From assembly GCA_035295205.1 (NCBI GenBank), contig DATGJM010000147.1, positions 407 to 64,406 on the forward strand: a stretch of DNA of 64,000 nucleotides, written 5' to 3'. The translations under genes were made by a program, and so were the position numbers. Below are positions 22,440 through 63,309 of the stretch, piece after piece (the first letter of the stretch is position 1; each line of letters starts with the position of its first letter). Below the pieces are notes generated by a model. That model saw only the letters and a list, made by a program, of their open reading frames with translations. It was not told where the DNA came from and did not search any database. This DNA comes from Solirubrobacteraceae bacterium. Lineage in GTDB: Bacteria > Actinomycetota > Thermoleophilia > Solirubrobacterales > Solirubrobacteraceae.

Positions 22440-22514
22440 GTAGGGAACATCGGGTCGGGCGCGCCGCAACAGATCCGGAGCGCCGACCGGCAGGCGTGAG
22501 GTTTTCTACGGAGG

Positions 22515-22586
22515 TGGCCCGGGCTGGATTCGAACCAGCGCGCGACGGATTATGAGTCCGCTGCTCTACCGCTGAGCTACCGGGCC
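22515..22586 (-). tRNA. tRNA with CAT anticodon, most likely tRNA-Ile2
   Basis: GGCCCGGTAGCTCAGCGGTAGAGCAGCGGACTCATAATCCGTCGCGCGCTGGTTCGAATCCAGCCCGGGCCA folds as a cloverleaf. G1-C72, A73 and GACTCATAATC resemble Ile2 rather than initiator Met. CCA end not fully encoded (ACCT). Confidence 0.93.
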
Positions 22587-43045: not shown

Positions 43046-44523
43046 TGGCGCTCCAGACCGCAGCCCGAAGCCCCGGGCGGGGTCTCGCTGGCGGTCTGAG
43101 CCCTGCCCGGCGCGAGTGGCCACCCCGCTCGTTGGTCCTCATCGTGGGCGCGTGCGTCGGATTGGCGGCGCTGTCGGCGGCGCTGCTGCCGACGGTGCCG
43201 AGCTACGACCCCTGGTCGTGGATCGTGTGGGGCCGGGAGGTGTTCGACCCCCATCTGAGCTTCGCGGTCAGCGGGGGCCCGTCGTGGAAGCCCCTGCCCG
43301 TGTGCTTCACGGCGGTGTTCGGGCTGTTCGGCGGTGCGGCGCCGACCCTGTGGGTGATCACCGCGCGCGCCGGCGGGCTGCTGGCGGTGGTGGCCGCCTA
43401 CCGCCTGGGGGGGCTGCTGGCGGGTCGCCTCGGGACGCACGGGTGGGCTGCTGTGGTGGCGGGCGTGATCTCCGCTCTCGGGGTCGCGCTGACCAACCAG
43501 TTCTTCTACTACATGTTCCGGGGCACCTCGGAACCGATGCTCGTTGCGGCGTCTCTGTGGGCTGTGGACCGGCATCTGGCCGGCCGGCGGGGCTCGACGT
43601 TCGTGCTGCTCGTCGCCGCGTCGCTGATCCGCCCCGAGGCCTGGCCGTTCCTGCTCGGCTACGGGGTCTGGGTGTGGCGCCGCGAGCCCGCGCTTCGCGG
43701 GCTGGTTCTCGTCGGCTGGCTGTCGGTGCCGTTCTTCTGGTTCGTGCCGCCCTGGGTGGGCTCGGGCCAGCCCTTCCTCGCCGCCTCGCACGCGAAGTCC
43801 TACAACGGCCACCTGGGCTCGAACCCGTTCGCCACCGTGATGAGGCGCGGGGCCACGCTCCAGATCGTGCCGGCGCTGATCGCCGGTCTGATCGCGGTCG
43901 CCTTGGCGTGGTGGCGCGATCGCGATCGCATCGTGCTCGGGCTGTTCGGCGCAGTTGTCGGCTGGTGGGTGCTGGTCGTGGGGATGACGCTCGACGGCTA
44001 CCCGGGGCTGGATCGCTTCTTCCTGCCCGCCGCGGCTCTGACCTGTGCACTGGCTGGGGCGGGGGTGGTTGCGCTCGCCTCGCTGGCGCCGCGGTGGATC
44101 GCGCCGGTGGTGGTCGTGGCGGTGCTCGGGGTGTCGGCGCCGTTCGCAGCCGGCCGGGTGTCGACCGGCTGGAAGCAACGCGGGATCGCCGCCCAGGCGG
44201 TCACGCGCCTGAATCAGCTCACGGCCGCCGTCGCCGCGGTCGGAGGGCACCGCGGCGTGTTTCCGTGCTCGTCCAGCTTCTCGGCCGTCAACCACGGCGT
44301 CCAGACCGCGCTGGCCTGGAAGCTGCACGTCACGCTGGGCCGCGTGGGCACCTCGATGCGCCACCAGGGCGTGATGTTCGTGGGACCCTGGGACACGATC
44401 GACGGCCAGCCGGCCCCGATCTCGCACCGCCTGACCCAGTCCGTGCTGATCGCGCGGGTCGGCGCCTGGCGCGTGTATCGGGTGACCGCCTCGGGCGCCG
44501 ACACCCGCTGCGTCGGGCGCTGA
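43045..44523 (+). CDS. Multi-pass membrane protein, probably GT-C-fold glycosyltransferase
   Basis: About 10-11 TMs; acidic first loop SYDPWSW; SEP and RPEAW motifs; coupled to the GT2 gene by a TGATG overlap. Confidence 0.65.
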   Translation: MALQTAARSPGRGLAGGLSPARREWPPRSLVLIVGACVGLAALSAALLPTVPSYDPWSWIVWGREVFDPHLSFAVSGGPSWKPLPVCFTAVFGLFGGAAPTLWVITARAGGLLAVVAAYRLGGLLAGRLGTHGWAAVVAGVISALGVALTNQFFYYMFRGTSEPMLVAASLWAVDRHLAGRRGSTFVLLVAASLIRPEAWPFLLGYGVWVWRREPALRGLVLVGWLSVPFFWFVPPWVGSGQPFLAASHAKSYNGHLGSNPFATVMRRGATLQIVPALIAGLIAVALAWWRDRDRIVLGLFGAVVGWWVLVVGMTLDGYPGLDRFFLPAAALTCALAGAGVVALASLAPRWIAPVVVVAVLGVSAPFAAGRVSTGWKQRGIAAQAVTRLNQLTAAVAAVGGHRGVFPCSSSFSAVNHGVQTALAWKLHVTLGRVGTSMRHQGVMFVGPWDTIDGQPAPISHRLTQSVLIARVGAWRVYRVTASGADTRCVGR

Positions 44524-51070: not shown

Positions 51071-51189
51071 CCGGCGCGGGGTCTGGCCGGGGTTGCGGTC
51101 TGCCCCGGTCACGGGCCTCGTTCGCGGTCGCGGCCTGGCCGGGGTCGCGGTCTGCCCGGGGTCGCGGTCTGCCCGGGGTCGCGGTCTCC
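51071..51189 (+). repeat. Degenerate 17-bp tandem repeat (CCGGGGTCGCGGTCTGC)
   Basis: Three near-perfect units at 51139-51189 plus decayed units upstream. Confidence 0.85.
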
Positions 51190-51241
51190 CCGGCCGCGCG
51201 GCCTAACCCCGCACGCCGCCTTCCCAGGCCCTCCCGGCCCC

Positions 51242-51349
51242 GAAAAAGTGCAAATCGGGTCGCGCGCTCCGACGATTTGCACCTTTTGTGCCCTGAGAGC
51301 ACGGAACGTGAGAACCGATCCGGGTCGCTGACAGGTTTGCGCGTTTTTC
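51242..51349. repeat. AT-richer inverted-repeat (REP/MITE-like) element
   Basis: AAAAAGTGCAAATCG (51243-51257) pairs with CGATTTGCACCTTTT (51273-51287); a second decayed arm pair AACGTGAGAACC/GGTTTGCGCGTT follows. Confidence 0.6.
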
Positions 51350-51361
51350 ATCGGGGAGTGA

Positions 51362-51469
51362 GGCCGCGGGGTTGGAGCCGCCCACCTGGGCCGCGGGGTT
51401 GGGGCCGCTGACCTGGGCCGCGGGGTTGGGGCCGCCGACCTGGGCCGCGGGGTTGGGGCCGCCGACCTG
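51362..51469 (+). repeat. 27-bp tandem repeat x4 (GGCCGCGGGGTTGGGGCCGCCGACCTG)
   Basis: Units at 51362, 51389, 51416 and 51443. Confidence 0.93.
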
Positions 51470-51513
51470 GGTCGCGGGCCCGGGGTCGCGGAGGGCGGGT
51501 CGCTCCGGCGGGC

Positions 51514-51578
51514 CGCGCGGCGGGGGAACCAGCGCGCGGCGGGGGAACCACAGCGCGCGGCGGGGGAACCACAGCGCG
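51514..51578 (+). repeat. About 21-bp tandem repeat x3 (GCGCGCGGCGGGGGAACCACA)
   Basis: Three GCGCGGCGGGGGAACCA cores; the first unit is 2 bp shorter. Confidence 0.88.
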
Positions 51579-51655
51579 GGGCGGGCCCCAGGGCGAGGCC
51601 GCTCCCGGACGCGTGCCGGCGGTTTTCCGTCGGGAGCGGGCCATACGCTGCCGCC

Positions 51656-54297: not shown

Positions 54298-56589
54298 GTG
54301 ACCCGTGCGCCCGTCGATCGTCTCGAGCATCCCGAGGCCCGCCGCGAGGTCGAAGACGTCAAGCTCACCGCCAACGAGCGGCTGCTGCTCTCGGACCTGT
54401 TCGCGATCGTCGAGGAGCACGCGCACGAGGCGGCGGCGCCGATCGACCGCGAACGGGTCCAGCACGCGTTCGTGTTCGCCTGCCTCCACCATGCCGATCA
54501 GCGCCGCCGGTCCGGCGAGGACTTCATCATCCATCCGGTTGGCGTGGCCAAGATCTGCGCCGGGATGCGGCTGGACACCGAGACCCTCTGCGCGGCGCTG
54601 CTGCACGACACGGTCGAGGACACCTCGGCCTCGCTGGAGGAGGTCACGAGCGAGTTCGGCGAGGAGGTCGGCGGGCTCGTCGACGGCGTGACCAAGCTGA
54701 CCGGGCTGACGTTCCAGTCCCGCGATGAGGCCCAGGCCGAGAACTACCGCAAGATGATGGTTGCGATGGCCTCGGACATCCGGGTCATCCTCATCAAGCT
54801 GGCCGATCGCCTGCACAACATGCGCACGATCGCCGCCATGCCCAAGCAGAAGCAGATCGACAAGGCGCGCGAGACGCTCGACATCTACGCGCCGATCGCC
54901 CACCGGCTCGGCATCCACGCGATCAAGTGGGAGCTCGAGGACCTCGCCTTCCAGACGCTTCACCCGCGCAAGTACAACGAGATCAAGGAGCTCGTCGCCC
55001 AGCAGCGCGCCGAGCGCGAGCGCTACATCAACCAGGCGGGCGACTACCTGGACAAGGAGCTCGACGAGATCGGCGTCGAAGCCGAGATCTCCGGCCGCGC
55101 CAAGCACTTCTACTCGATCTACTCGAAGATGACCAAGAAGGGCCGCGAGTTCAACGAGATCTACGACCTGACGGCGCTGCGGGTGATCGTCGCCTCGACG
55201 AAGGACTGCTACGGCGCCGTGGGCGTGATCCACTCGCTGTGGAAGCCGCTGCCCGGGCGGTTCAAGGACTTCATTGCGATGCCCAAGTTCAACATGTACC
55301 AGTCGCTGCACACGACGGTGATCGGGCCCGAGGGCAGGCCGCTGGAGATCCAGATCCGCACCCGCGAGATGCATGACCTGGCCGAGTTCGGGATCGCCGC
55401 GCACTGGATGTACAAGGAGGGCGCGCCGCGTAACGCCGTGCTCACGAGCGATGGCGACGGCAAGTTGAAGTGGCTGCGCTCGCTGCTGGACTGGCAGCAG
55501 GAGGAATCGGACCCGCGGGAGTTCATGGATGCCCTGAAGGTCGACCTGTTCGAGGACGAGGTCTTCGTGTTCACCCCGAAGGGCGAGGTGAAATCGCTGG
55601 CGGCAGGCGCAACCCCACTGGACTTCGCCTACGAGATCCACACCGACGTCGGTCACCGCTGCGTGGGCGCCAAGGTCAACGGAAAGATCGTGCCGCTGTC
55701 GTATCAGCTGCGCTCCGGCGACATCGTCGAGGTGCTGACCTCGAAGCGGGAACGCGGGCCGAGCCGCGACTGGCTGGCGCTGGTGAAGACCACTCGCGCG
55801 CGCAACAAGATCAAGGCCTGGTTCAAGGCCGAGAACCGCAAGGACACCGAGCACTCCGGCCGCGAGCTTCTCCAGGACCACCTGCGCAAGCAGGGGCTGC
55901 CGGCCCAGAAGATCGTCGGCTCGACCCTGCTGGCCGACGTCATCCGCGAGATGGGCTTCCGCAAGGCGGACGACTTCTACATCGCCCTCGGCGGGGCCAA
56001 GATCTCGGCCAAGGTCGTCGTGAACAAGGTCATGCAGCGCCTGAAGGAGGGCGAGGCCGCCGACTCCGAGCCCACCGCCACCGACGACCTGCTGCAGACG
56101 CGGCGGCGCCGCTCGCGCCCGACCACCTCGAGCTCGAAGTACGGGATCACGGTCGAGGGCGTGGACGACGTGATGCTCCGGATGGCGAAGTGCTGCCGTC
56201 CGGTGCCCGGCGACCCGATCGTGGGCTACATCTCGCTTGGGCGCGGGATCACGATCCACCGCTCGGACTGTCCGAACGTGGCTGTGCTCAAGCGCGATCC
56301 GGACCGCTTCACCGCCGTGTCGTGGGACGGCGACGCCGAGACGTCGTTCCGGGTCGAGATCCAGGTCGACGGCTGGGACCGCCATCGCCTGCTCGAGGAC
56401 ATGTCACGCACGTTCGCCGAGGCCGGCATCAACATCGTCGAGGCCCGCTGCACGGTCAACCACCCGATGGTCAAGAACCGCTTCGTGGTCGAGGTGGGGG
56501 ATACGCGCACGCTCGACCAGACGATCAACCGCCTGCGCAATATCGACGCGGTGTTCGACGCCTACCGGGTGACCCCCGGCGCCGGCTGA
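54298..56589 (+). CDS. rel: Bifunctional (p)ppGpp synthetase/hydrolase (long RSH); start uncertain
   Basis: HD domain AALLHDTVEDT, IKLADRLHNMRT, APIAHRLG, GRAKHFYSIY, YQSLHT, EIQIRT, TGS, CC (AKCCRPVPGD), ACT. The first canonical start after recJ is GTG 54298. Confidence 0.95.
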   Translation: MTRAPVDRLEHPEARREVEDVKLTANERLLLSDLFAIVEEHAHEAAAPIDRERVQHAFVFACLHHADQRRRSGEDFIIHPVGVAKICAGMRLDTETLCAALLHDTVEDTSASLEEVTSEFGEEVGGLVDGVTKLTGLTFQSRDEAQAENYRKMMVAMASDIRVILIKLADRLHNMRTIAAMPKQKQIDKARETLDIYAPIAHRLGIHAIKWELEDLAFQTLHPRKYNEIKELVAQQRAERERYINQAGDYLDKELDEIGVEAEISGRAKHFYSIYSKMTKKGREFNEIYDLTALRVIVASTKDCYGAVGVIHSLWKPLPGRFKDFIAMPKFNMYQSLHTTVIGPEGRPLEIQIRTREMHDLAEFGIAAHWMYKEGAPRNAVLTSDGDGKLKWLRSLLDWQQEESDPREFMDALKVDLFEDEVFVFTPKGEVKSLAAGATPLDFAYEIHTDVGHRCVGAKVNGKIVPLSYQLRSGDIVEVLTSKRERGPSRDWLALVKTTRARNKIKAWFKAENRKDTEHSGRELLQDHLRKQGLPAQKIVGSTLLADVIREMGFRKADDFYIALGGAKISAKVVVNKVMQRLKEGEAADSEPTATDDLLQTRRRRSRPTTSSSKYGITVEGVDDVMLRMAKCCRPVPGDPIVGYISLGRGITIHRSDCPNVAVLKRDPDRFTAVSWDGDAETSFRVEIQVDGWDRHRLLEDMSRTFAEAGINIVEARCTVNHPMVKNRFVVEVGDTRTLDQTINRLRNIDAVFDAYRVTPGAG

Positions 56590-56594
56590 GGCGC

Positions 56595-58022
56595 CTAGAG
56601 CGACGGACCATCGCGCTGGCGGCGCGCGGCCACCCGCATCACCCGCACGCGCATCGACGGGAGCTTCGTGATCGCCACGGCCTCGCCGGTGCGCAGCGAC
56701 TTGATCGTGTTCGGGTGCACGACCGGCTGCTCGACCTGTCGGCGGCTGCCGCGCGAGCCGCGAAGCCCTGCGTACCCGAGATTCCGGGTCTCGAGCCATC
56801 CCCATTCGGTCCCGGTCATCTGAGCCACCGCCTGGGCCGAGGCGGGCACGTCCTGGCGGTGGACGATCTTGACTGCGGTGTTGCCGAGAACCTGCTCCCG
56901 GACTCCCGGCGCCGCGCGGTCGAGGTCGGCCAGCTCCTGGGTCGCCAACAGCGCGCTGACCCCGGACTCGCGGCCGCGGGCGAGCAGGCCGACGACGTGA
57001 TCGGCGGCGAGCGCGGAGAACTCGTCGATTGCGACCACGGCCGGAGCCGGACCCCCGGTGGATGTGGTGAGCCGCTCCCCGGCGGCCGAGATCAGGTCCT
57101 GCACGACCATCGTCCCGATCTGGGCCGCGAGCTTGCCGTAGCTGCTCGAGTTCAGGCTGAACACGACCACCGCCTCCCCGCGGAGCGCCGCGCGCAGATC
57201 GATCTCGGGCTCACCCGGGCCGCCGCCGCCCAGGTAGCGGCCGGCGTGTGACTCGGTGAGGATCGCCAGCCGGGTGCCGAGCCCGCGCGCGGCGCTCGCC
57301 TGGTCGGGCGTGAGTCCTGACAGGTACTCATGCACGTGCGTCCGCAGCGGGTCGGGGGCGCGCTGGGCCAGCCGGGCGAGGCGGCGGGGCTCGCTCAGCC
57401 TCACGACCTCCTCGAGCGTCGGCGAACGCTCTGGGTGCACGCTCGCGAGCACGCTCAGCACCGTCTGCAGGTAGCGCTCCGCCGCACGCTGATAGTGGGG
57501 CTCGCTGAAGCGCTCGGTCGCGATCAGCTTGTCCTTGAGCTCGGTCGGGTTGCCGTGGGCGAGCGGGTTCCAGCGCGCCGGCCCGTCGGGGCTCCACACC
57601 ATGAACGGCCGTCCCGCCCTCTCGGCCGCGTCCGCGAGCGCCCGCGCGAACGCGGGCGAGCCCTTCAGGTCGAGCGCCACCACGGGCAGGCCCCGGGCGA
57701 TCCGGTCGCCGAGCACCGTGAGCAGGGTGGTCGACTTGCCGGCGCCGCTGGCGCCGAGGATCAGCGCGTGGGCGCCGAGCTCGTGGTCGGCGACGAGCAC
57801 CCGCCGGCCCGAACGGTCGTGGCCAAGCAGGAGGCCGCCGCCTGCCGAGTTCCGGCTTTCCGCGCGCCGGGCGCGCAGCAATCGGACAGCGCGCACGGCC
57901 AGCCGCGCGGCCGCGAGCGCTACGAGGACGGTGAGCGCCGCCCCGGGCGGCGCCATCAGCGCCAGCGCCAGGGCCGCGAGCGTCCACCAGGGCGTCCGCG
58001 AGCGTCTCTCAGGCGGGCTCAT
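56595..58022 (-). CDS. VirD4/TraD/TrwB-like type IV coupling ATPase
   Basis: N-terminal hydrophobic anchor; HALILGASGAGKST (Walker A); VVALDLKG; WNPL; VVAIDEF (Walker B); ARGRESGVSALLATQELADL; VLGNTAVKIVHRQ; VHPNTIKSLRTGEA. Confidence 0.88.
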   Translation of the reverse strand: MSPPERRSRTPWWTLAALALALMAPPGAALTVLVALAAARLAVRAVRLLRARRAESRNSAGGGLLLGHDRSGRRVLVADHELGAHALILGASGAGKSTTLLTVLGDRIARGLPVVALDLKGSPAFARALADAAERAGRPFMVWSPDGPARWNPLAHGNPTELKDKLIATERFSEPHYQRAAERYLQTVLSVLASVHPERSPTLEEVVRLSEPRRLARLAQRAPDPLRTHVHEYLSGLTPDQASAARGLGTRLAILTESHAGRYLGGGGPGEPEIDLRAALRGEAVVVFSLNSSSYGKLAAQIGTMVVQDLISAAGERLTTSTGGPAPAVVAIDEFSALAADHVVGLLARGRESGVSALLATQELADLDRAAPGVREQVLGNTAVKIVHRQDVPASAQAVAQMTGTEWGWLETRNLGYAGLRGSRGSRRQVEQPVVHPNTIKSLRTGEAVAITKLPSMRVRVMRVAARRQRDGPSL

Positions 58023-58774
58023 CTGGCGATCTGCCTGGTGCGGCGGCGCGCGGGGGCGCGCGGCGAGGCCGCCTGGCGGGTCGGATCGGCCATCGCCACC
58101 CGCTGGACCTGGACCATCGGTGTGATCCCCAGCCGGCGCGCCGAGGCCTCGATCTGGGCGCCAACGCGGCCGTCGCGGACCAGGTAGAGCACGACATCGA
58201 GGTTCGGGTCGCAGGCGTACCCCTCGAGGATGCGCTCGCGTCGCGCCTTCCCCTTCCCGGTGAGCTCGAGCTCGACCGCGATCCGGTGCCCCTGCGGGGT
58301 GACAAGGAGCAGGTCGGGATAGTGCAGCCGCTCCTGGCCGCCCGGGCCGAAACCGCCGAGCCGGACCGCCAGCTGGGGCTCCGAGCGCCGTCCCGGCCCG
58401 TCGCGCGAGCGCAGCTCGCGCTCGCCGATCACCTCCCGCAGCTCTCCGAACGCCCCGTCGCGGGCGGCCAGCCACAGCCAGGCCGCTCCCACGTCGTGCG
58501 CGTAGGTCCGCAGGTCGCGCTTGGGCACGGGCAGGGAGCTCCCGATCGCCGCCAGCCCGTCACGGGTGATCTGGTGGGTGGCCGGCGTGCGGTGGAAGAC
58601 GACGTCCCGCCGCACGAGCCCGGCGCGCCGCAGCGCCCTCAGCCTGGCGTGGGCCACGGGGGCCGACACGGCCAGGAAGATCTGGACATGGTCGGCCCGC
58701 ACGAACCGATGCGCGGCCACGAACCCGAGCAGCTCGCGGTCGCGCTCGGTGATCTGCAGGGAATCTGGCTCCAC
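58019..58774 (-). CDS. Replication-relaxation (Replic_Relax/MOBC-like) protein: wHTH + PD-(D/E)xK nuclease
   Basis: ITERDRELL..RF...RLRALRRAGLV (wHTH); AHD; PDLLL...IAVELELTGK...R..ILEGY; coupled to the ATPase gene by an ATGA overlap. Confidence 0.78.
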   Translation of the reverse strand: MEPDSLQITERDRELLGFVAAHRFVRADHVQIFLAVSAPVAHARLRALRRAGLVRRDVVFHRTPATHQITRDGLAAIGSSLPVPKRDLRTYAHDVGAAWLWLAARDGAFGELREVIGERELRSRDGPGRRSEPQLAVRLGGFGPGGQERLHYPDLLLVTPQGHRIAVELELTGKGKARRERILEGYACDPNLDVVLYLVRDGRVGAQIEASARRLGITPMVQVQRVAMADPTRQAASPRAPARRRTRQIAR

Positions 58775-58817
58775 ATAGTTAAGAGCCCCGAGCGACCCCG
58801 AATTCACCCCCCCACAG

Positions 58818-58850
58818 AAAAACGAGTGCGGGGCCGCCAAGGCCCCGCAC
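58818..58850 (-). terminator. Intrinsic terminator-like hairpin
   Basis: Perfect 10-bp stem GTGCGGGGCC/GGCCCCGCAC, followed on the minus strand by TCGTTTTTCT, 17 nt after the stop of the secreted-protein gene. Confidence 0.7.
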
Positions 58851-58867
58851 CCCTCGATGTCAACGGG

Positions 58868-59377
58868 TCAGGATGCCGGGACGGCAGCGCTGCCGGTGAG
58901 CACGGTCCGGACGTACACGGCGCGCGGCGGGGCGCTGCGGCCCTCGCAGGCTCCGCTCGCCGAGCGCGCGCCGATCAGCTTGCGCACGGTCACGTACGTC
59001 CCCCCGCCGGTCGTATGCCGGTAGCCCCGGGTTCCCCCGACGATGCGGAACGTGCCCTTCTCGGTGATCGTCGCCGAGCATCGGCGCGTGTCGAGGCGAG
59101 CCCTCAGCGAGGTCGTCTTGTTAGTCACGAACACCGACCCCGCGTGCAGGTTGATCGTGAGCACTCCCGATCTCTCGTTGTCCTCGGCGGTCCCGCGCCC
59201 GTGGATCGGGCCGGCGGCGATCACATGGATCGGCGTGTCGACGCCGTGGACGGTCGCGCCCCGCAGCGTGAGGCGCTCGGGGCGCGACTGGGCCGACACC
59301 GCGGCGCCGGCCGTCGCGACGGTCAGGATGAATGCGGCGAGGCACAGCGCCATCGAAGCGGTGAACCTTGAACCCAT
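58868..59377 (-). CDS. Secreted hypothetical beta-rich protein
   Basis: RBS AAAGGAG; signal peptide; FRIVGGTRGYRHTTGGGTY motif; two Cys in the mature part. Confidence 0.75.
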   Translation of the reverse strand: MGSRFTASMALCLAAFILTVATAGAAVSAQSRPERLTLRGATVHGVDTPIHVIAAGPIHGRGTAEDNERSGVLTINLHAGSVFVTNKTTSLRARLDTRRCSATITEKGTFRIVGGTRGYRHTTGGGTYVTVRKLIGARSASGACEGRSAPPRAVYVRTVLTGSAAVPAS

Positions 59378-59539
59378 CTGTGGCTCCTTTCGAAGAGCGG
59401 AAGAACTGACGCTCAAGCTAAGTCCGGTGCCTCGCGTTGTCGCCTGGCTGAGGTGGGATCTTCGGTCTGCCTTCAGAGGGATTCGAAGATCTGCCGGATG
59501 GCCGATGCCGGGGCGCCGGAGCGGCAGTAGCGTTAGCCC

Positions 59540-60658
59540 ATGCTCAGCCGCGCTCGTCGGCTCACGGATCCTCGGATCGTGGATGCGGCAGTCGCGCTCG
59601 TCCTCGGGGTGGTCGCGGAGACGAGCGTGTTCGTCGGGTCGGGCTGGCGCGGTCCGGCGCCGCTGAATGCGGCCGGCACGGCCTTGGTGGCGGTCTCGTT
59701 GCTGTGGCGGCGCAGCCGCCCGATGGTGGTCCTCGGCCTCTTTGCCGCAGTGATGTCGGCGCTCGCACTCGCCTTCGGCTCGTCGGATTCGCCCACCGGG
59801 CTGTTCCTGCTGATGGTGGCGCTGTACTCGGCGGGGGCCTATGGGTCGCGCCCGATCGTCGGCGTCGCCCTGCTTGGGTTGATCGCGACCGTTCACCTTG
59901 TCCGCGACAGGCAGGTCACCTCCTTCGGTGACGCCGTGTACCTGTTCGCCGTGCTCGGCTTGGTGTTTCTGGTCGGAATGGGGATGCGGGCCCGAGTCGC
60001 GCGAACCGCCGAGGTGGAGCGGCAGCGCGACACGGTCGCCGCGATCGCGGTCGAGGAGGAGCGGCGCCGGATCGCTCGCGAGCTCCACGACATCATCTCG
60101 CACAGCCTTGGGGTGCTCGTGCTCCAGGCCGGGGCCGTCGAGCAGGTGCTGGAGCGCGATCCGGAGCGCGCACGGGAGGCGTTGCGCTCGATCCGGGCAA
60201 TCGGCCAGGAGGCGATCGCCGAGATGGGCACGCTCTTGTCGCTCGTTCGAAGCGAGGCGGAGAGCTCCCGCCAGCCTCAGCCCTCGCTGGCCGACCTCGA
60301 CGCGCTCGTTCAGCGGACTCGGGACGCAGGGCTCGGCGTGAAGTTGCAGATCGAGGGCGAGCCCTGCCAGCTGCCCGCGCCGCTGGAGCTATCCGCATAC
60401 CGGATCGTCCAGGAGGGCCTCACGAACGCGCTCAAGCATGCCGGGCGGGCGCAGGCCCGGGTGACCGTCCGCTATGGCGACGATCGTCTGGAGGTGGAGG
60501 TGATCGACGACGGGGCGGGCGCGGGCAACGGCGCCGGGACACGGAGCGGGCTGGCCGGGATCGGGGAGCGAGTGGCCGTGTTCGGGGGCCGGTTCGAGGC
60601 CGGACCGCAGCCTGACGGAGGCTGGGGCGTGCGCGCGGCGCTGCCCCTGGCGCGATGA
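59540..60658 (+). CDS. HisKA_3 (NarX/DesK-like) intramembrane sensor kinase
   Basis: About five TMs; EERRRIARELHDIISH; YRIVQEGLTNALKHA; DDGAG; GLAGIGERV. Confidence 0.92.
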   Translation: MLSRARRLTDPRIVDAAVALVLGVVAETSVFVGSGWRGPAPLNAAGTALVAVSLLWRRSRPMVVLGLFAAVMSALALAFGSSDSPTGLFLLMVALYSAGAYGSRPIVGVALLGLIATVHLVRDRQVTSFGDAVYLFAVLGLVFLVGMGMRARVARTAEVERQRDTVAAIAVEEERRRIARELHDIISHSLGVLVLQAGAVEQVLERDPERAREALRSIRAIGQEAIAEMGTLLSLVRSEAESSRQPQPSLADLDALVQRTRDAGLGVKLQIEGEPCQLPAPLELSAYRIVQEGLTNALKHAGRAQARVTVRYGDDRLEVEVIDDGAGAGNGAGTRSGLAGIGERVAVFGGRFEAGPQPDGGWGVRAALPLAR

Positions 60659-61317
60659 TCCGGGTCCTCGTCGTGGACGATCAGGGCGTCGTTCGCGCGG
60701 GTCTACGCATGATCCTCGAGGCCCAGCCCGACCTCGAGGTCGTGGGGGAGGCCGGGGATGGCTCAGCCGCGATTTCGCTGGTCGGCGCGCTCGAACCGGA
60801 CGTCGTGCTGATGGACATCCGCATGCCAGCCCTGGACGGGATCGAGGCGACCCGACGGATCGCGGCCGCAGGCAGCCCCGCGCGGATCCTCGTGCTGACG
60901 ACTTACGCCCTCGACGAGTACGTCTACGAGGCGCTGAAGGCCGGGGCCGCCGGGTTCTTCGTCAAGACGGAGTCACCGGAGCGTCTGGTCGACGCCGTCC
61001 GCGTGGTGGCCGCCGGCGAATCGCTGCTGGCGCCGGAGATAACCAGGCGCCTGATCGACCACTTCCTTCTCGGCTCGCCCCCCGACGCTGCGCCGCCGCC
61101 GGAGCTCGCGGAGCTCACCAACCGCGAGCTCGAGGTCCTGCGGCACCTGGCACGTGGCCTGTCGAACAGCGAGATCGCCTCCGGCCTGTACATCAGCGAA
61201 GGGACGGTGAAGACCCATGTCGCGCGGATCCTGCTCAAGCTCGGTCTGCGCGACCGGGTACAGGCGGTCGTCTTCGCGTATGAGCACCGGCTCGTTCAGC
61301 CCGGGCAGGCGGCCTGA
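60655..61317 (+). CDS. NarL/LuxR-family response regulator
   Basis: VVDDQ, LMDIRMP, LTNRELEVL..GLSNSEIA..TVKTHV..KLGLRDRVQAVV. Confidence 0.95.
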   Translation: MIRVLVVDDQGVVRAGLRMILEAQPDLEVVGEAGDGSAAISLVGALEPDVVLMDIRMPALDGIEATRRIAAAGSPARILVLTTYALDEYVYEALKAGAAGFFVKTESPERLVDAVRVVAAGESLLAPEITRRLIDHFLLGSPPDAAPPPELAELTNRELEVLRHLARGLSNSEIASGLYISEGTVKTHVARILLKLGLRDRVQAVVFAYEHRLVQPGQAA

Positions 61318-61324
61318 GCCCTGA

Positions 61325-62251
61325 CTACGGGCTGGGGTGCGGCAGCGAGCTCGTGTCCACGACCTCGAAGTCGCTGCCGTGAAGCTCATTGAGGAGGTGC
61401 AGCGCGCTGTCGCTCCAGCGACCGTCGGGCGCGCCCGAGATGTACCAGGGAGAGCCGTTGTCGGCCAGGATCATCCCGTAGCGCTTGAGCGCCTGGGCGA
61501 CGATCCGCGCCTGGTAGGGCAGCCGGGAGATGTCGATGCCCGCCTTCAGGCGCACCCGCAACCCCATCGGCGGACAGGAGCCGCCTCCCGTGGCCGCGAA
61601 GTGACGGGCCGGATAGAGATAGCGGGCCGAGGTGCACGGCGCGGTGAAGCGCAGGGCGTGGTCGATCGACCCGCGGGCGACCTCGTCGTAGCGGGCCAGG
61701 CCGGGCAGAATCGGCAGCCCGGCGGCGTCGGCCGAGGTCCAGCCGGCTGGACGCAGATGGTTGGAGCGCAGGTTGAAGATCGCACCCGACCCGGCGTGCC
61801 AGCCGCCCCTGACCGGACGGGCGTCAAAGAGCTCATAGTCGCGACAGTTCGAGCGGTCGAGCAGGATCACGTGGCGGTCGCCGGTGCCATTCGGGCCGCC
61901 CTCGATCTTCGGATGGCGGGGGATGGGGTACGCGGCGTGGTCGGACTCGTCGGAGTAGTCGAAGCTCACGTGCACGCGTGGGGTCCGGCTTGAGACGATT
62001 GTGATCGGGATGCCGTTCGGCGCGCCGTCCCACACCGTGCCGAAGTCGGGATGCACCGGCGTGCCGGCGCCGATGACGGCGATCAGACGGGCTGAGTCGG
62101 AGGCCACGGGGAGCTGGTCGACCCGCTGGTTCCACGGGTTGTTCGAGGGGAAGATCGGGCAGTTGGCAGCGCCCGGGACCGGGTGGGCGCTGCCAAGCCC
62201 GGGCACGAGCACCGCCCCGAGGACGGCCAGCCCGAAGAGGATGCGACGCAT
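61325..62251 (-). CDS. Secreted hypothetical protein
   Basis: Signal peptide MRRILFGLAVLGAVLVPG; GDRH, WTSADAAGLP, DHALRFT, MGLRVRLK, YGMILADNG; TAGGCT 7 nt before the ATG. Confidence 0.8.
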   Translation of the reverse strand: MRRILFGLAVLGAVLVPGLGSAHPVPGAANCPIFPSNNPWNQRVDQLPVASDSARLIAVIGAGTPVHPDFGTVWDGAPNGIPITIVSSRTPRVHVSFDYSDESDHAAYPIPRHPKIEGGPNGTGDRHVILLDRSNCRDYELFDARPVRGGWHAGSGAIFNLRSNHLRPAGWTSADAAGLPILPGLARYDEVARGSIDHALRFTAPCTSARYLYPARHFAATGGGSCPPMGLRVRLKAGIDISRLPYQARIVAQALKRYGMILADNGSPWYISGAPDGRWSDSALHLLNELHGSDFEVVDTSSLPHPSP

Positions 62252-62322
62252 CTCGCAGAGCCTAGCCGCCGCCCCCGGCGACTCGGCCCGCCCGCGGACG
62301 AATGATCGGTGTGGCAGTGGCT

Positions 62323-63309
62323 CTACGCCACGACGGTGAGGCTGCGCGGGCTGACCGTGAACACGGCCTCCGGCGCCTCGCCGATGTAGTCGCCGTCGAC
62401 CTGGAGCGGCAGCGCGCGCTCGTCGCGCGAGCGCACCCTCACCTCCTGGGCGCCCGCGAACGGGTGCACGTGGCGGTGGTTGACCAGGTGGGCGCGTCGG
62501 GAGAGCATCCGCCAGGTCATCGTCGCCAGATCCAGAGGCGTAGCTCGCCTGAGCACGACGCCGGCCAGGTCGCCGCTCTCGAGCGTCGCCCCTTCGCCGA
62601 CGCCCACCGGACGGTTGCCGAAATACGTGTAGGGCTCGGCGTTCTGGACGACCGTCGTCACCCCGGCCACGACCTCCTCGCCGATCTCGGTCTCCAGACG
62701 CGGCGGGCGAACGAGGTAGCGGCGGTTGAACGTCCGGATGCCGACCGATGCGTAGTACCACTCGCCGATCCGCGCCTTCAGCCGGGGATGGGCGTCGACC
62801 CGCTCGACCACGCTGGCGTCGAGGCCGACGCCGGCGGAGAAGGTGAAGTGACGCCCGTTCACGACGCCAGTGTCGACCTTCCGCGGCCGCCAGTCGTCGG
62901 CCAGGCTCAGCAGGTGCTCGGTGGCGTCGACGATGTCGACCGGGATCCCGAGCAGGCGGCAGTAGACGTTGGCTCTTCCCCCCGGCAGGCAGGTCAGCGC
63001 GGTGTCGGTGCCGATCAAGCCGTTGGCGGCCTCGTTGACCGTGCCGTCTCCGCCGAACGCGACCACCACGTCGTAGCCCGAATTGGCCGCCTCGCGGCAC
63101 AGCTCGGTGGCGTGGTCGCGGGCCTCGGTGTCGATCGCCTCGACCTGGTAGCTGCCCCGCAGCGCGTACACGACGAGGTTCTTCAGGCGGTCGGAGACCG
63201 TGCTCGCGTATGGGTTGACGATCACGAGCATGCGCCGGCTCGGCGGTGTCTCGCCGATCCGCAGGACCGCCTCGAGGCGCGAAAGTGGATCTGAGGAAGT
63301 GGCGCCCAT
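62323..63309 (-). CDS. Diacylglycerol-kinase-family (YegS/BmrU-like) lipid kinase
   Basis: VIVNPYA, FGGDGTVNEAANGL, LPGGRAN, GVGLDA, LQVDGD. Confidence 0.9.
   Translation of the reverse strand: MGATSSDPLSRLEAVLRIGETPPSRRMLVIVNPYASTVSDRLKNLVVYALRGSYQVEAIDTEARDHATELCREAANSGYDVVVAFGGDGTVNEAANGLIGTDTALTCLPGGRANVYCRLLGIPVDIVDATEHLLSLADDWRPRKVDTGVVNGRHFTFSAGVGLDASVVERVDAHPRLKARIGEWYYASVGIRTFNRRYLVRPPRLETEIGEEVVAGVTTVVQNAEPYTYFGNRPVGVGEGATLESGDLAGVVLRRATPLDLATMTWRMLSRRAHLVNHRHVHPFAGAQEVRVRSRDERALPLQVDGDYIGEAPEAVFTVSPRSLTVVA

Follow-up and report, generated by a model that had tools for sequence, protein, structure and literature searches.

How does a nuclease resembling the relaxases of mobilizable elements come to lie, together with a coupling ATPase, beside housekeeping genes of a bacterial chromosome, and what might the two proteins do there? 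The question is raised by a two-gene module in a 64,000-nucleotide stretch of DNA (the window) from a member of the Solirubrobacteraceae (assembly GCA_035295205.1; contig DATGJM010000147.1, here C147, of a 62%-complete genome, here G000). An earlier note, made from the sequence alone, had taken the pair either for a domesticated module that pumps chromosomal DNA through a channel encoded elsewhere or for a defence or DNA-processing system. Our analysis leaves very little doubt that the pair is a vertically inherited, domesticated core module, and makes it probable that it belongs to a conjugation system that has been domesticated and is spread over four loci, likely exporting chromosomal DNA. 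Judged from sequence, the pair is likely to nick the host's own DNA and to feed it into a conjugation-type channel encoded at a separate site. The module comprises:

56,595 to 58,022, minus strand: type IV coupling protein-like ATPase (TraD/TrwB/DotL type), 475 amino acids
58,019 to 58,774, minus strand: MOBC/Replic_Relax-like nuclease, 251 amino acids from the inferred leaderless GTG
58,775 to 58,812, minus strand: promoter-like element A, GGGGGGTGAAT-N13-GGGCTCT-N7-GTG

The nuclease and the coupling ATPase

The nuclease consists of a winged helix-turn-helix (wHTH) domain (approximately residues 1-80), a PD-(D/E)XK domain and a disordered basic tail, with an invariant motif of the form H-x-PD...E-L-E-L-x-x-K and an invariant tyrosine downstream of it; the catalytic D/E/E/K residues are unchanged in all 46 aligned copies. 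MOBC relaxases carry the catalytic signature D-x(6-17)-E-x-E-(R/L)-x2-K-x3-R-Y, against which the nuclease shows D-x13-E-L-E-L-x-x-K in 46/46 copies and the R in 44/46; the final Y is replaced, and the invariant tyrosine lies eight residues past the R. AlphaFold models (pLDDT 86.7 and 91.6) give an N-terminal, MarR-like wHTH (Z up to 10.5), and the C-terminal domain, modelled alone, retrieves mostly restriction-type PD-(D/E)XK nucleases, the best being LlaBIII with a middling Z of 8.5 (root-mean-square deviation 3.7 over 113 residues). The models and the invariant motifs bear out the domain assignment of the earlier note, and the nuclease as modelled has the winged helix and PD-(D/E)XK architecture of MOBC/Replic_Relax relaxases. 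Standard relaxase profiles fail to pick it up: the Pfam scan of the window nuclease returned no match, Replic_Relax included, and on NF041423 (MobC_subf), which matches all 38 aligned homologs (best E 2e-12), it scores 31 bits, far under the 200-bit cut-off. A whole-protein Foldseek search found no match at E<=0.001, a PDB sequence search matched the wHTH only, and PF13814 is present on 21% of the members of the nearest Atlas cluster (score 0.97).

The ATPase combines an N-terminal hydrophobic segment (Kyte-Doolittle 2.08) with a Walker A motif GASGAGKST and a Walker B motif IDEF; the Walker K/D/E residues are unchanged in 45/45 aligned copies and the membrane anchor is present in 43 of the 44 full-length ones. 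In Pfam it scores 35.2 bits on TraG-D_C and 27.7 bits on TrwB_AAD_bind, above the respective cut-offs of 22 and 20.5, and stays under the cut-offs for HerA_C and DUF87. Among solved relatives, its family profile matches DotL, a coupling protein, best (E 3.8e-11). These domains, the anchor and the intact Walker motifs are those of a type IV coupling protein (T4CP), in agreement with the intact, membrane-anchored VirD4/TraD-like ATPase first described; among the profile searches then suggested, TraG-D_C and TrwB_AAD_bind pass and Replic_Relax does not match the nuclease. As every NCBIfam equivalog cut-off is missed (best SXT_TraD, 88.8 of 366), we place the ATPase in no named subfamily.

The 3' end of the nuclease gene overlaps the ATPase start by ATGA, an overlap kept in 48 of 51 loci, and the ATPase is translationally coupled to the nuclease, as had been supposed. 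The two genes adjoin in 78/80 GTDB loci, the other two ending at contig ends. The predicted nuclease-ATPase complex scores 0.20, under the 0.32 mark, which counts neither for nor against it. As to the Arg-rich C-termini remarked on earlier, the arginine fraction of the last 15 residues is indeed raised in the two module proteins (0.24 and 0.22 against a background of 0.11), but the tails are not conserved in sequence, and the final arginine of the nuclease is largely forced by the overlap with the ATPase start. The nuclease probably starts at GTG 58,774, 7 nt behind a conserved promoter, and not at 58,840-58,850, where it had been placed.

A core module inherited with its host

Whether the pair belongs to the host or to a passing element can be judged from its neighbourhood, distribution and descent. 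It has one fixed convergent neighbour:

54,298 to 56,589, plus strand: rel (RelA/SpoT), a host gene outside the module

As first noted, 5 bp separate the stop of the ATPase gene from that of rel at 56,589. The relatives compared are uncultured Solirubrobacteraceae/Solirubrobacterales genomes (80/80 listed records are metagenome-assembled genomes). The nuclease profile matches 148 of the 150 genus genomes that are at least 85% complete, and 96 of the 97 high-quality ones; leaving out three genomes flagged as unpublished, the counts are 145/147 for the nuclease and 143/147 for VirB4, a component of the channel described below. In the two genomes without a nuclease match rel is absent too, the locus as a whole not being assembled, and a weak match in G286 is truncated by a contig end. 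A first draw of genus genomes gave 22/24 for the ATPase and 22/24 for the nuclease; two members of it, G002 and G006, have the pair with no rel within a short locus. Among the 39 main copies from 40 fetched loci, 37 have the ATPase gene and rel in convergent orientation (one of the remaining two stops at a contig end and one has no rel within the stretch); the same arrangement is seen in 69/73 GTDB loci with room for it, a set overlapping the 40 fetched loci. The 3' ends of the ATPase gene and the opposite-strand rel overlap in several relatives (tail ending in PGVTR).

Trees of 26 genomes with all eight genes intact and clear of locus edges have 9 well-supported splits in common between the module and Rel+DAGK and 0 conflicts; between the module and the unlinked type IV secretion system (T4SS) genes, 10 well-supported splits are in common and 1 is in conflict. 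At random, 0.17 shared splits would be expected. Median dN/dS (counting method, up to 10 close pairs) is 0.25 for the nuclease, 0.15 for the ATPase, 0.28 for RecJ, 0.14 for DAGK and 0.07 for VirB4, values that are upper estimates given the high G+C content at third codon positions (GC3). The module is under purifying selection. Three nucleases were flagged for stops within over-extended matches, and two of these are intact when read from the promoter. The host-like composition reported earlier is confirmed: module GC is 0.70-0.75 against 0.64-0.76 across the window, and its GC3 of 0.92 lies at the 65th-74th percentile of the genome. The expectation of a widespread pair congruent with its host is likewise upheld by the counts and trees above.

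The absence of a mobile element around the pair also stands: 1) gene calls on the contig, read by eye, include no obvious integrase or tra gene; 2) the tRNA scan places none close to the module; 3) no exact repeats flank the module among the 20 largest repeat families listed; and 4) none of the 15 joints listed of 109 skips the module as excision would, in data that are shallow and mixed. Neither an integrase nor att sites were seen, and the spread of the pair is not patchy. That it is a mobile-element remnant, recently inserted or decaying, is barely credible: its nearest outside relatives are integrase-associated copies and the ATPase is interrupted in 4/49 loci, but prevalence, synteny and tree congruence speak against it, as do dN/dS values similar to those of RecJ and DAGK, codon use resembling that of the host and the promoter of a host regulon. 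The patchiness and relaxed selection by which the earlier note would have recognised such decay are replaced by congruence with host genes and purifying selection.

Mobile relatives and a parallel locus

Tyrosine integrases, excisionases and restriction cargo adjoin the additional copies found within the genus, as well as homologs from other genera. In an ATPase tree of 48 rows from a quick search, 28 core copies together with G002 and G006 fall on one side of a branch with support 97, and this core side neighbours integrase-associated copies. The module was likely captured from an integrative mobilizable element (IME). A distant plasmid homolog of the nuclease (26.5% identity, E 1e-4) stands first in an operon with a T4CP and tra genes. 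Two mobile copies have direct repeats in common upstream of the nuclease, which may be an origin of transfer (oriT) or an operator. We also observed in G021 and G329 integrase-bearing elements with nuclease-ATPase, a divergent HTH-DUF5919 regulator, GGACGAT repeats and type III restriction cargo, which constitute a candidate IME family with a candidate oriT.

In genera g14 (11/12) and g36 (10/11) a distant pair occupies another fixed site, before hrcA-dnaJ and in reversed order, which also carries a coupling protein-Replic_Relax fusion and a single-stranded DNA-binding protein (SSB). The order at this second fixed locus (g14, g36, g20, g45) is a fusion of ~1200 amino acids, an unknown gene, a regulator, the coupling protein, the nuclease and SSB. 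The g14 and g36 ATPases form a separate tree branch with other mobile copies, and these genera are mostly devoid of core-type VirB4. A search for the T4CP-Replic_Relax fusion in 5 closed genomes of the source genus gave no match.

A conjugation-type channel at a separate site

If the pair delivers DNA, which channel would receive it? A VirB4-type search matched one conserved locus in 5/5 closed genomes, in which a gene for an extracytoplasmic function (ECF) sigma factor is divergent from genes for a pilin (DUF6112), an SCO6881/VirB6-like protein, SCO6880, VirB4, VirD4 and a small protein (example: G374:C1 2.171-2.177 Mb). The channel encoded elsewhere that the earlier note had postulated is thus found in relatives as a T4SS operon at a separate, fixed chromosomal site. 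The core VirB4 domain spans 412 amino acids; the profile matches of VirB4 and the SCO6881/VirB6-like protein lie under their cut-offs. The six T4SS genes keep the same order in 45/45 fetched loci, the spacer between sigma and pilin is AT-rich and contains a direct-repeat motif, and the operon is congruent with host genes and under purifying selection. VirB4 is present in 146/150 genus genomes, and three of the four misses are explained by absent flanks or contig ends. In a family-wide draw, core-type VirB4 occurs in 9/11 genus genomes against 14/239 others; its range is that of the core nuclease clade, which amounts to co-distribution of module and channel. In G000 both usual flank genes of the operon end at contig ends (C1 start and C185 end), and the operon would be expected in the assembly gap between them; the best metagenome relative of a G000 flank gene is 81% identical. 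Related integrative and conjugative elements (ICEs; G383, G410) have the same T4SS gene order, one of them also bringing together homologs of the regulator, the hydrolase and the sigma.

A third locus, present in 87/100 genomes including G000 (C9:16336-17954, beside a DnaJ-TPR gene, with motif B upstream), encodes a putative wall hydrolase and a homolog of an ICE tra-region gene (44% identity to the ICE gene, no Pfam match), for which the label 'VirB8-like' is a guess. MOBF relaxases are patchy (25/80 genomes) and a MOBP relaxase occurs in 1/5 closed genomes, which leaves the nuclease as the sole core relaxase-like gene found, MOBQ, MOBV, MOBH and MOBT not having been searched for. The Replic_Relax family search gave 0/5, yet none of its controls matched either.

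Nuclease and pump might instead process or move the chromosome of their own cell. In Streptomyces, deletion of cmdABCDEF disturbs septation and chromosome segregation (PMC2782261), and near-universal retention fits a housekeeping function. A role without transfer, in segregation, dormancy or differentiation, is nonetheless distinctly unlikely here: pilin, VirD4 and the hydrolase locus are retained, as is an intact relaxase-like enzyme, the system is confined to one genus, and no relaxase, coupling protein or hydrolase partner is described for cmd in the available part of that paper.

Promoter A and motif B

We infer from its sequence that element A is a leaderless promoter for an alternative sigma factor. 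The promoter A model was trained on 49 nuclease loci, and its matches at nuclease loci are therefore circular. In G000 six top sites reach at least 24.5 bits, the next 19.0, and each of the six lies 7 nt ahead of a start codon; the genes behind them are the nuclease, an OmpR-type regulator and four others, three of which are recognisably AbiEi/DUF559-type. A strict pattern finds 22 sites in 5 genomes against 2 with a reversed control, after an earlier, over-strict one had given sites in 0/5. The OmpR-type response regulator and a short histidine kinase form a core pair upstream of mraZ, present in 56/60 genomes (G000:C180:6113-6425). Promoter A stands upstream of the regulator in 23 of the 30 best loci, and exceeds the best of 20 shuffles in 27/30. 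This regulator shares 41-44% identity with the regulator that, in g14 and g36, directly adjoins the coupling protein. Motif B is a direct repeat of 10 bp, modelled on the spacers between sigma and pilin in 45 T4SS loci; it is found again, at 16 bits or more, in front of the hydrolase locus in 24/29 loci.

Motif-B-like sites in G000 also precede recA and a RecQ-like gene. Control of recA and the DNA-damage response through motif B was considered and is weak (a match at 15 bits in 5/30 genomes), and RecD2 was rejected as a conserved helicase of the system (promoter A in 2/30 loci). recA has a strongly conserved promoter element of its own, GTCTTGTTCCGTTGCAG-N8/9-CTAG with loose upstream repeats, for which no matching regulator was identified. 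The motif-B-like sites bear on the idea of a domesticated system that is no chromosomal donor, importing DNA for repair in the manner of archaeal Ced, itself a domesticated conjugation homolog (available part of PMC9905601), or helping resident plasmids or islands. ComEC was matched in 0/5 closed genomes by a search that found it in 10/14 controls, and another uptake route may be needed. We regard this explanation as unlikely, a relaxase with its coupling protein being donor-side equipment and the recA and RecD2 matches being as sparse as just described.

Promoter A also occurs before AbiEi/DUF559 and Gp49-type genes. Genes for AbiEi_4 and DUF559/restriction endonuclease (REase) proteins are multi-copy in G000 (C125:1778-2803, C40, C32, C144, C176, C99, C197 and others), some copies having promoter A and others a motif-B-like site; contigs C40 and C32 open with an identical 141 bp. 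They are possibly a selfish family that captures host promoters. Such targets of promoter A, which it would appear to drive, fit a role in defence or antagonism, either as a HerA-like nuclease-ATPase anti-phage pair or as a T4SS-delivered nuclease effector with a dedicated adaptor. The partial PADLOC matches (mad8, E 8e-18; HerA, E 8e-5), the basic C-terminal tail and the restriction cargo of mobile copies point the same way. This alternative, already offered by the earlier note, is weakly supported at best and we consider it improbable: the pair has 99% prevalence at one fixed housekeeping site, unlike defence islands; the ATPase retains its anchor in all but one of the full-length copies and its coupling-protein domains above cut-off, with HerA_C and DUF87 under theirs; the PADLOC scan gave no match for the nuclease; and there is no immunity gene, rel being directly next.

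A proposed donor-side conjugation system

Taking the domesticated conjugation system as the preferred explanation, we propose the following sequence of events. The ECF sigma whose gene diverges from the T4SS operon would be dedicated to the system and fire promoter A at two targets, the nuclease-ATPase pair and the OmpR-type regulator-kinase pair. That regulator, or another factor, would bind motif B before the sigma/T4SS operon and the hydrolase locus, and this wiring could form a switch-like loop. The wHTH would then bind, and the PD-(D/E)XK domain nick, one or more chromosomal oriT-like sites; the cognate coupling ATPase would deliver the DNA to the pilin/VirB6/SCO6880/VirB4 channel, as proposed for MOBC+VirD4 mobilizable elements; and the outcome would be transfer of DNA to a neighbour cell in the manner of Hfr (high frequency of recombination) donors. 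Donor-side conjugation by a relaxase and its cognate coupling protein in a host-owned channel is in our judgement the most economical reading, and on balance we expect it to be the right one.

Several observations weigh against this proposal. The T4SS operon has its own VirD4, and the related ICEs use MOBF relaxases where a relaxase is seen; given these two facts, it is solely by co-distribution and motifs that module and channel are linked. Promoter A occurs within the T4SS locus in only 1/45 loci, and weakly; we infer both the assignment of the sigma to promoter A and the proteins that would read A and B. No conserved oriT-like sequence was found beside the core copies, and the upstream repeats of the two mobile copies are missing from core loci, which have promoter A in their place. 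Module and T4SS covary in rate (mean rho 0.10) to the same degree as module and host (0.09); the highest of the module-T4SS values, uncorrected, are nuclease-sigma 0.39 and ATPase-sigma 0.34. The ATPase interruptions noted above, for which sequencing error is neither shown nor excluded, and those of VirD4 (frameshifted or interrupted in 5/44 loci) compare with 1/47 for Rel, 2/37 for RecJ and 2/44 for DAGK. The T4SS operon was not seen in the 62%-complete source assembly, and G176, the fourth VirB4 miss, has the pair and no sigma or pilin match in 3.2 kb past the usual flank, which may be a true loss of the operon. The cmd cluster of Streptomyces did not support plasmid transfer or replace plasmid transfer genes, according to the available part of PMC2782261.

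A wider version of the proposal we put forward tentatively, thinking it somewhat doubtful as a whole: a host-owned sexual system built from two elements, an ICE-derived channel and an IME-derived MOBC pair, spread over four loci and governed by a sigma/two-component switch, would carry out programmed Hfr-like exchange that replaces competence; AbiEi/DUF559 genes would selfishly exploit its promoter for expression during mating, and a parallel system would have evolved independently in other genera of the family. Already a relaxase and a coupling protein fixed in the core genome, along with a core channel, would amount to chromosomal conjugation that the host itself encodes and regulates, in a large genus of uncultured soil bacteria with at least 150 species-level genomes; this bears on recombination in lineages without ComEC. 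With a defined promoter, a candidate sigma and motif B, the circuit can be tested in heterologous reporters without culturing the organism.

Surroundings of the module

Upstream of the module the window contains two further features:

58,816 to 58,850, minus strand: hairpin with T-run, terminator-like, behind the upstream secreted-protein gene (read by eye)
58,868 to 61,317: lineage-specific insertion outside the system, with a secreted hypothetical gene, a histidine kinase and a response regulator

The terminator-like hairpin would insulate the module from the upstream gene. The region 58,775-58,867, suggested earlier as the place of nicking, resolves into the promoter and this hairpin, with no evident oriT. 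The insertion at 58,868-61,317 separates the module from its usual upstream neighbours (61,325-63,231) and is missing in the 40 relative loci fetched. The names of the host neighbours (rel, recJ, secDF, DAGK-like, thrC) we presume from sequence features. Elsewhere in the window, tandem repeats of ~27 bp lie at 51,109-51,600 between a small membrane gene and recJ, visible as repeated peptides in spurious ORFs, and a tRNA-Met (22,513-22,586) and an unusually long tRNA-Ala (43,868-43,964; 97 nt) were called.

Comparison with known systems

To our knowledge, most domesticated T4SSs have lost their relaxase and are interpreted as machines for protein or for import; Ced and the T4SS of Patescibacteria, which serve import or host attachment, are not known to have one. 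A literature search found no paper on the present system, most subscription papers and all supplements being outside its reach. Relaxase-less domesticated T4SSs are treated in PMC3158045, and further parallels are the chromosomal transfer systems of Streptomyces and mycobacteria (PMC12857230). Archaeal Ced (PMC9905601) and the Patescibacteria T4SS (PMC12102498) resemble our case in being conjugation-derived machinery kept as host genes. Unlike them, the source lineage has two coupling ATPases and still possesses a relaxase-like enzyme that is intact. Streptomyces cmdABCDEF/SCO6871-6884 likewise lies in the chromosome, as an operon whose products include a short VirB4-like ATPase and membrane proteins resembling SCO6880 and SCO6881; it differs in its sporulation/segregation phenotype and in that the available part of its description mentions no relaxase-coupling module (PMC2782261).

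On the side of DNA transfer, the gonococcal genetic island of Neisseria is alike in that a chromosomal relaxase, coupling protein and T4SS move chromosomal DNA; however, its parts lie together in a single island, which has an oriT within it, a relaxase of the MOBH type and an F-type T4SS, and the secreted DNA is taken up by competence (PMC12857230, available part). Here the parts are spread over four loci, and the search for ComEC in the 5 closed genomes found none. The closest likeness of the module itself is to CloDF13 MobC, pAD1 TraX and the streptococcal MobC/VirD4 IMEs, in which a wHTH and restriction-like nuclease lies beside a coupling protein; such MOBC+VirD4 modules have no channel in cis and are thought to borrow that of a helper (PMC12857230, on MOBC enzymology, and PMC5704250, on MOBC elements that bring their own coupling protein and borrow a channel). 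Unlike these, the core module lacks an integrase and an excisionase, and no oriT was found beside it; it is fixed, vertically inherited and under a host promoter, and its helper channel would be a core chromosomal operon. The channel, in turn, has the pilin-VirB6-SCO6880-VirB4-VirD4 order of actinobacterial TrwC/MOBF T4SS ICEs (PMC3429521; G383, G410). Those elements are mobile, patchy and integrase-bearing, with MOBF where a relaxase is seen, whereas in the core system the channel would be paired with a MOBC-like module of separate origin.

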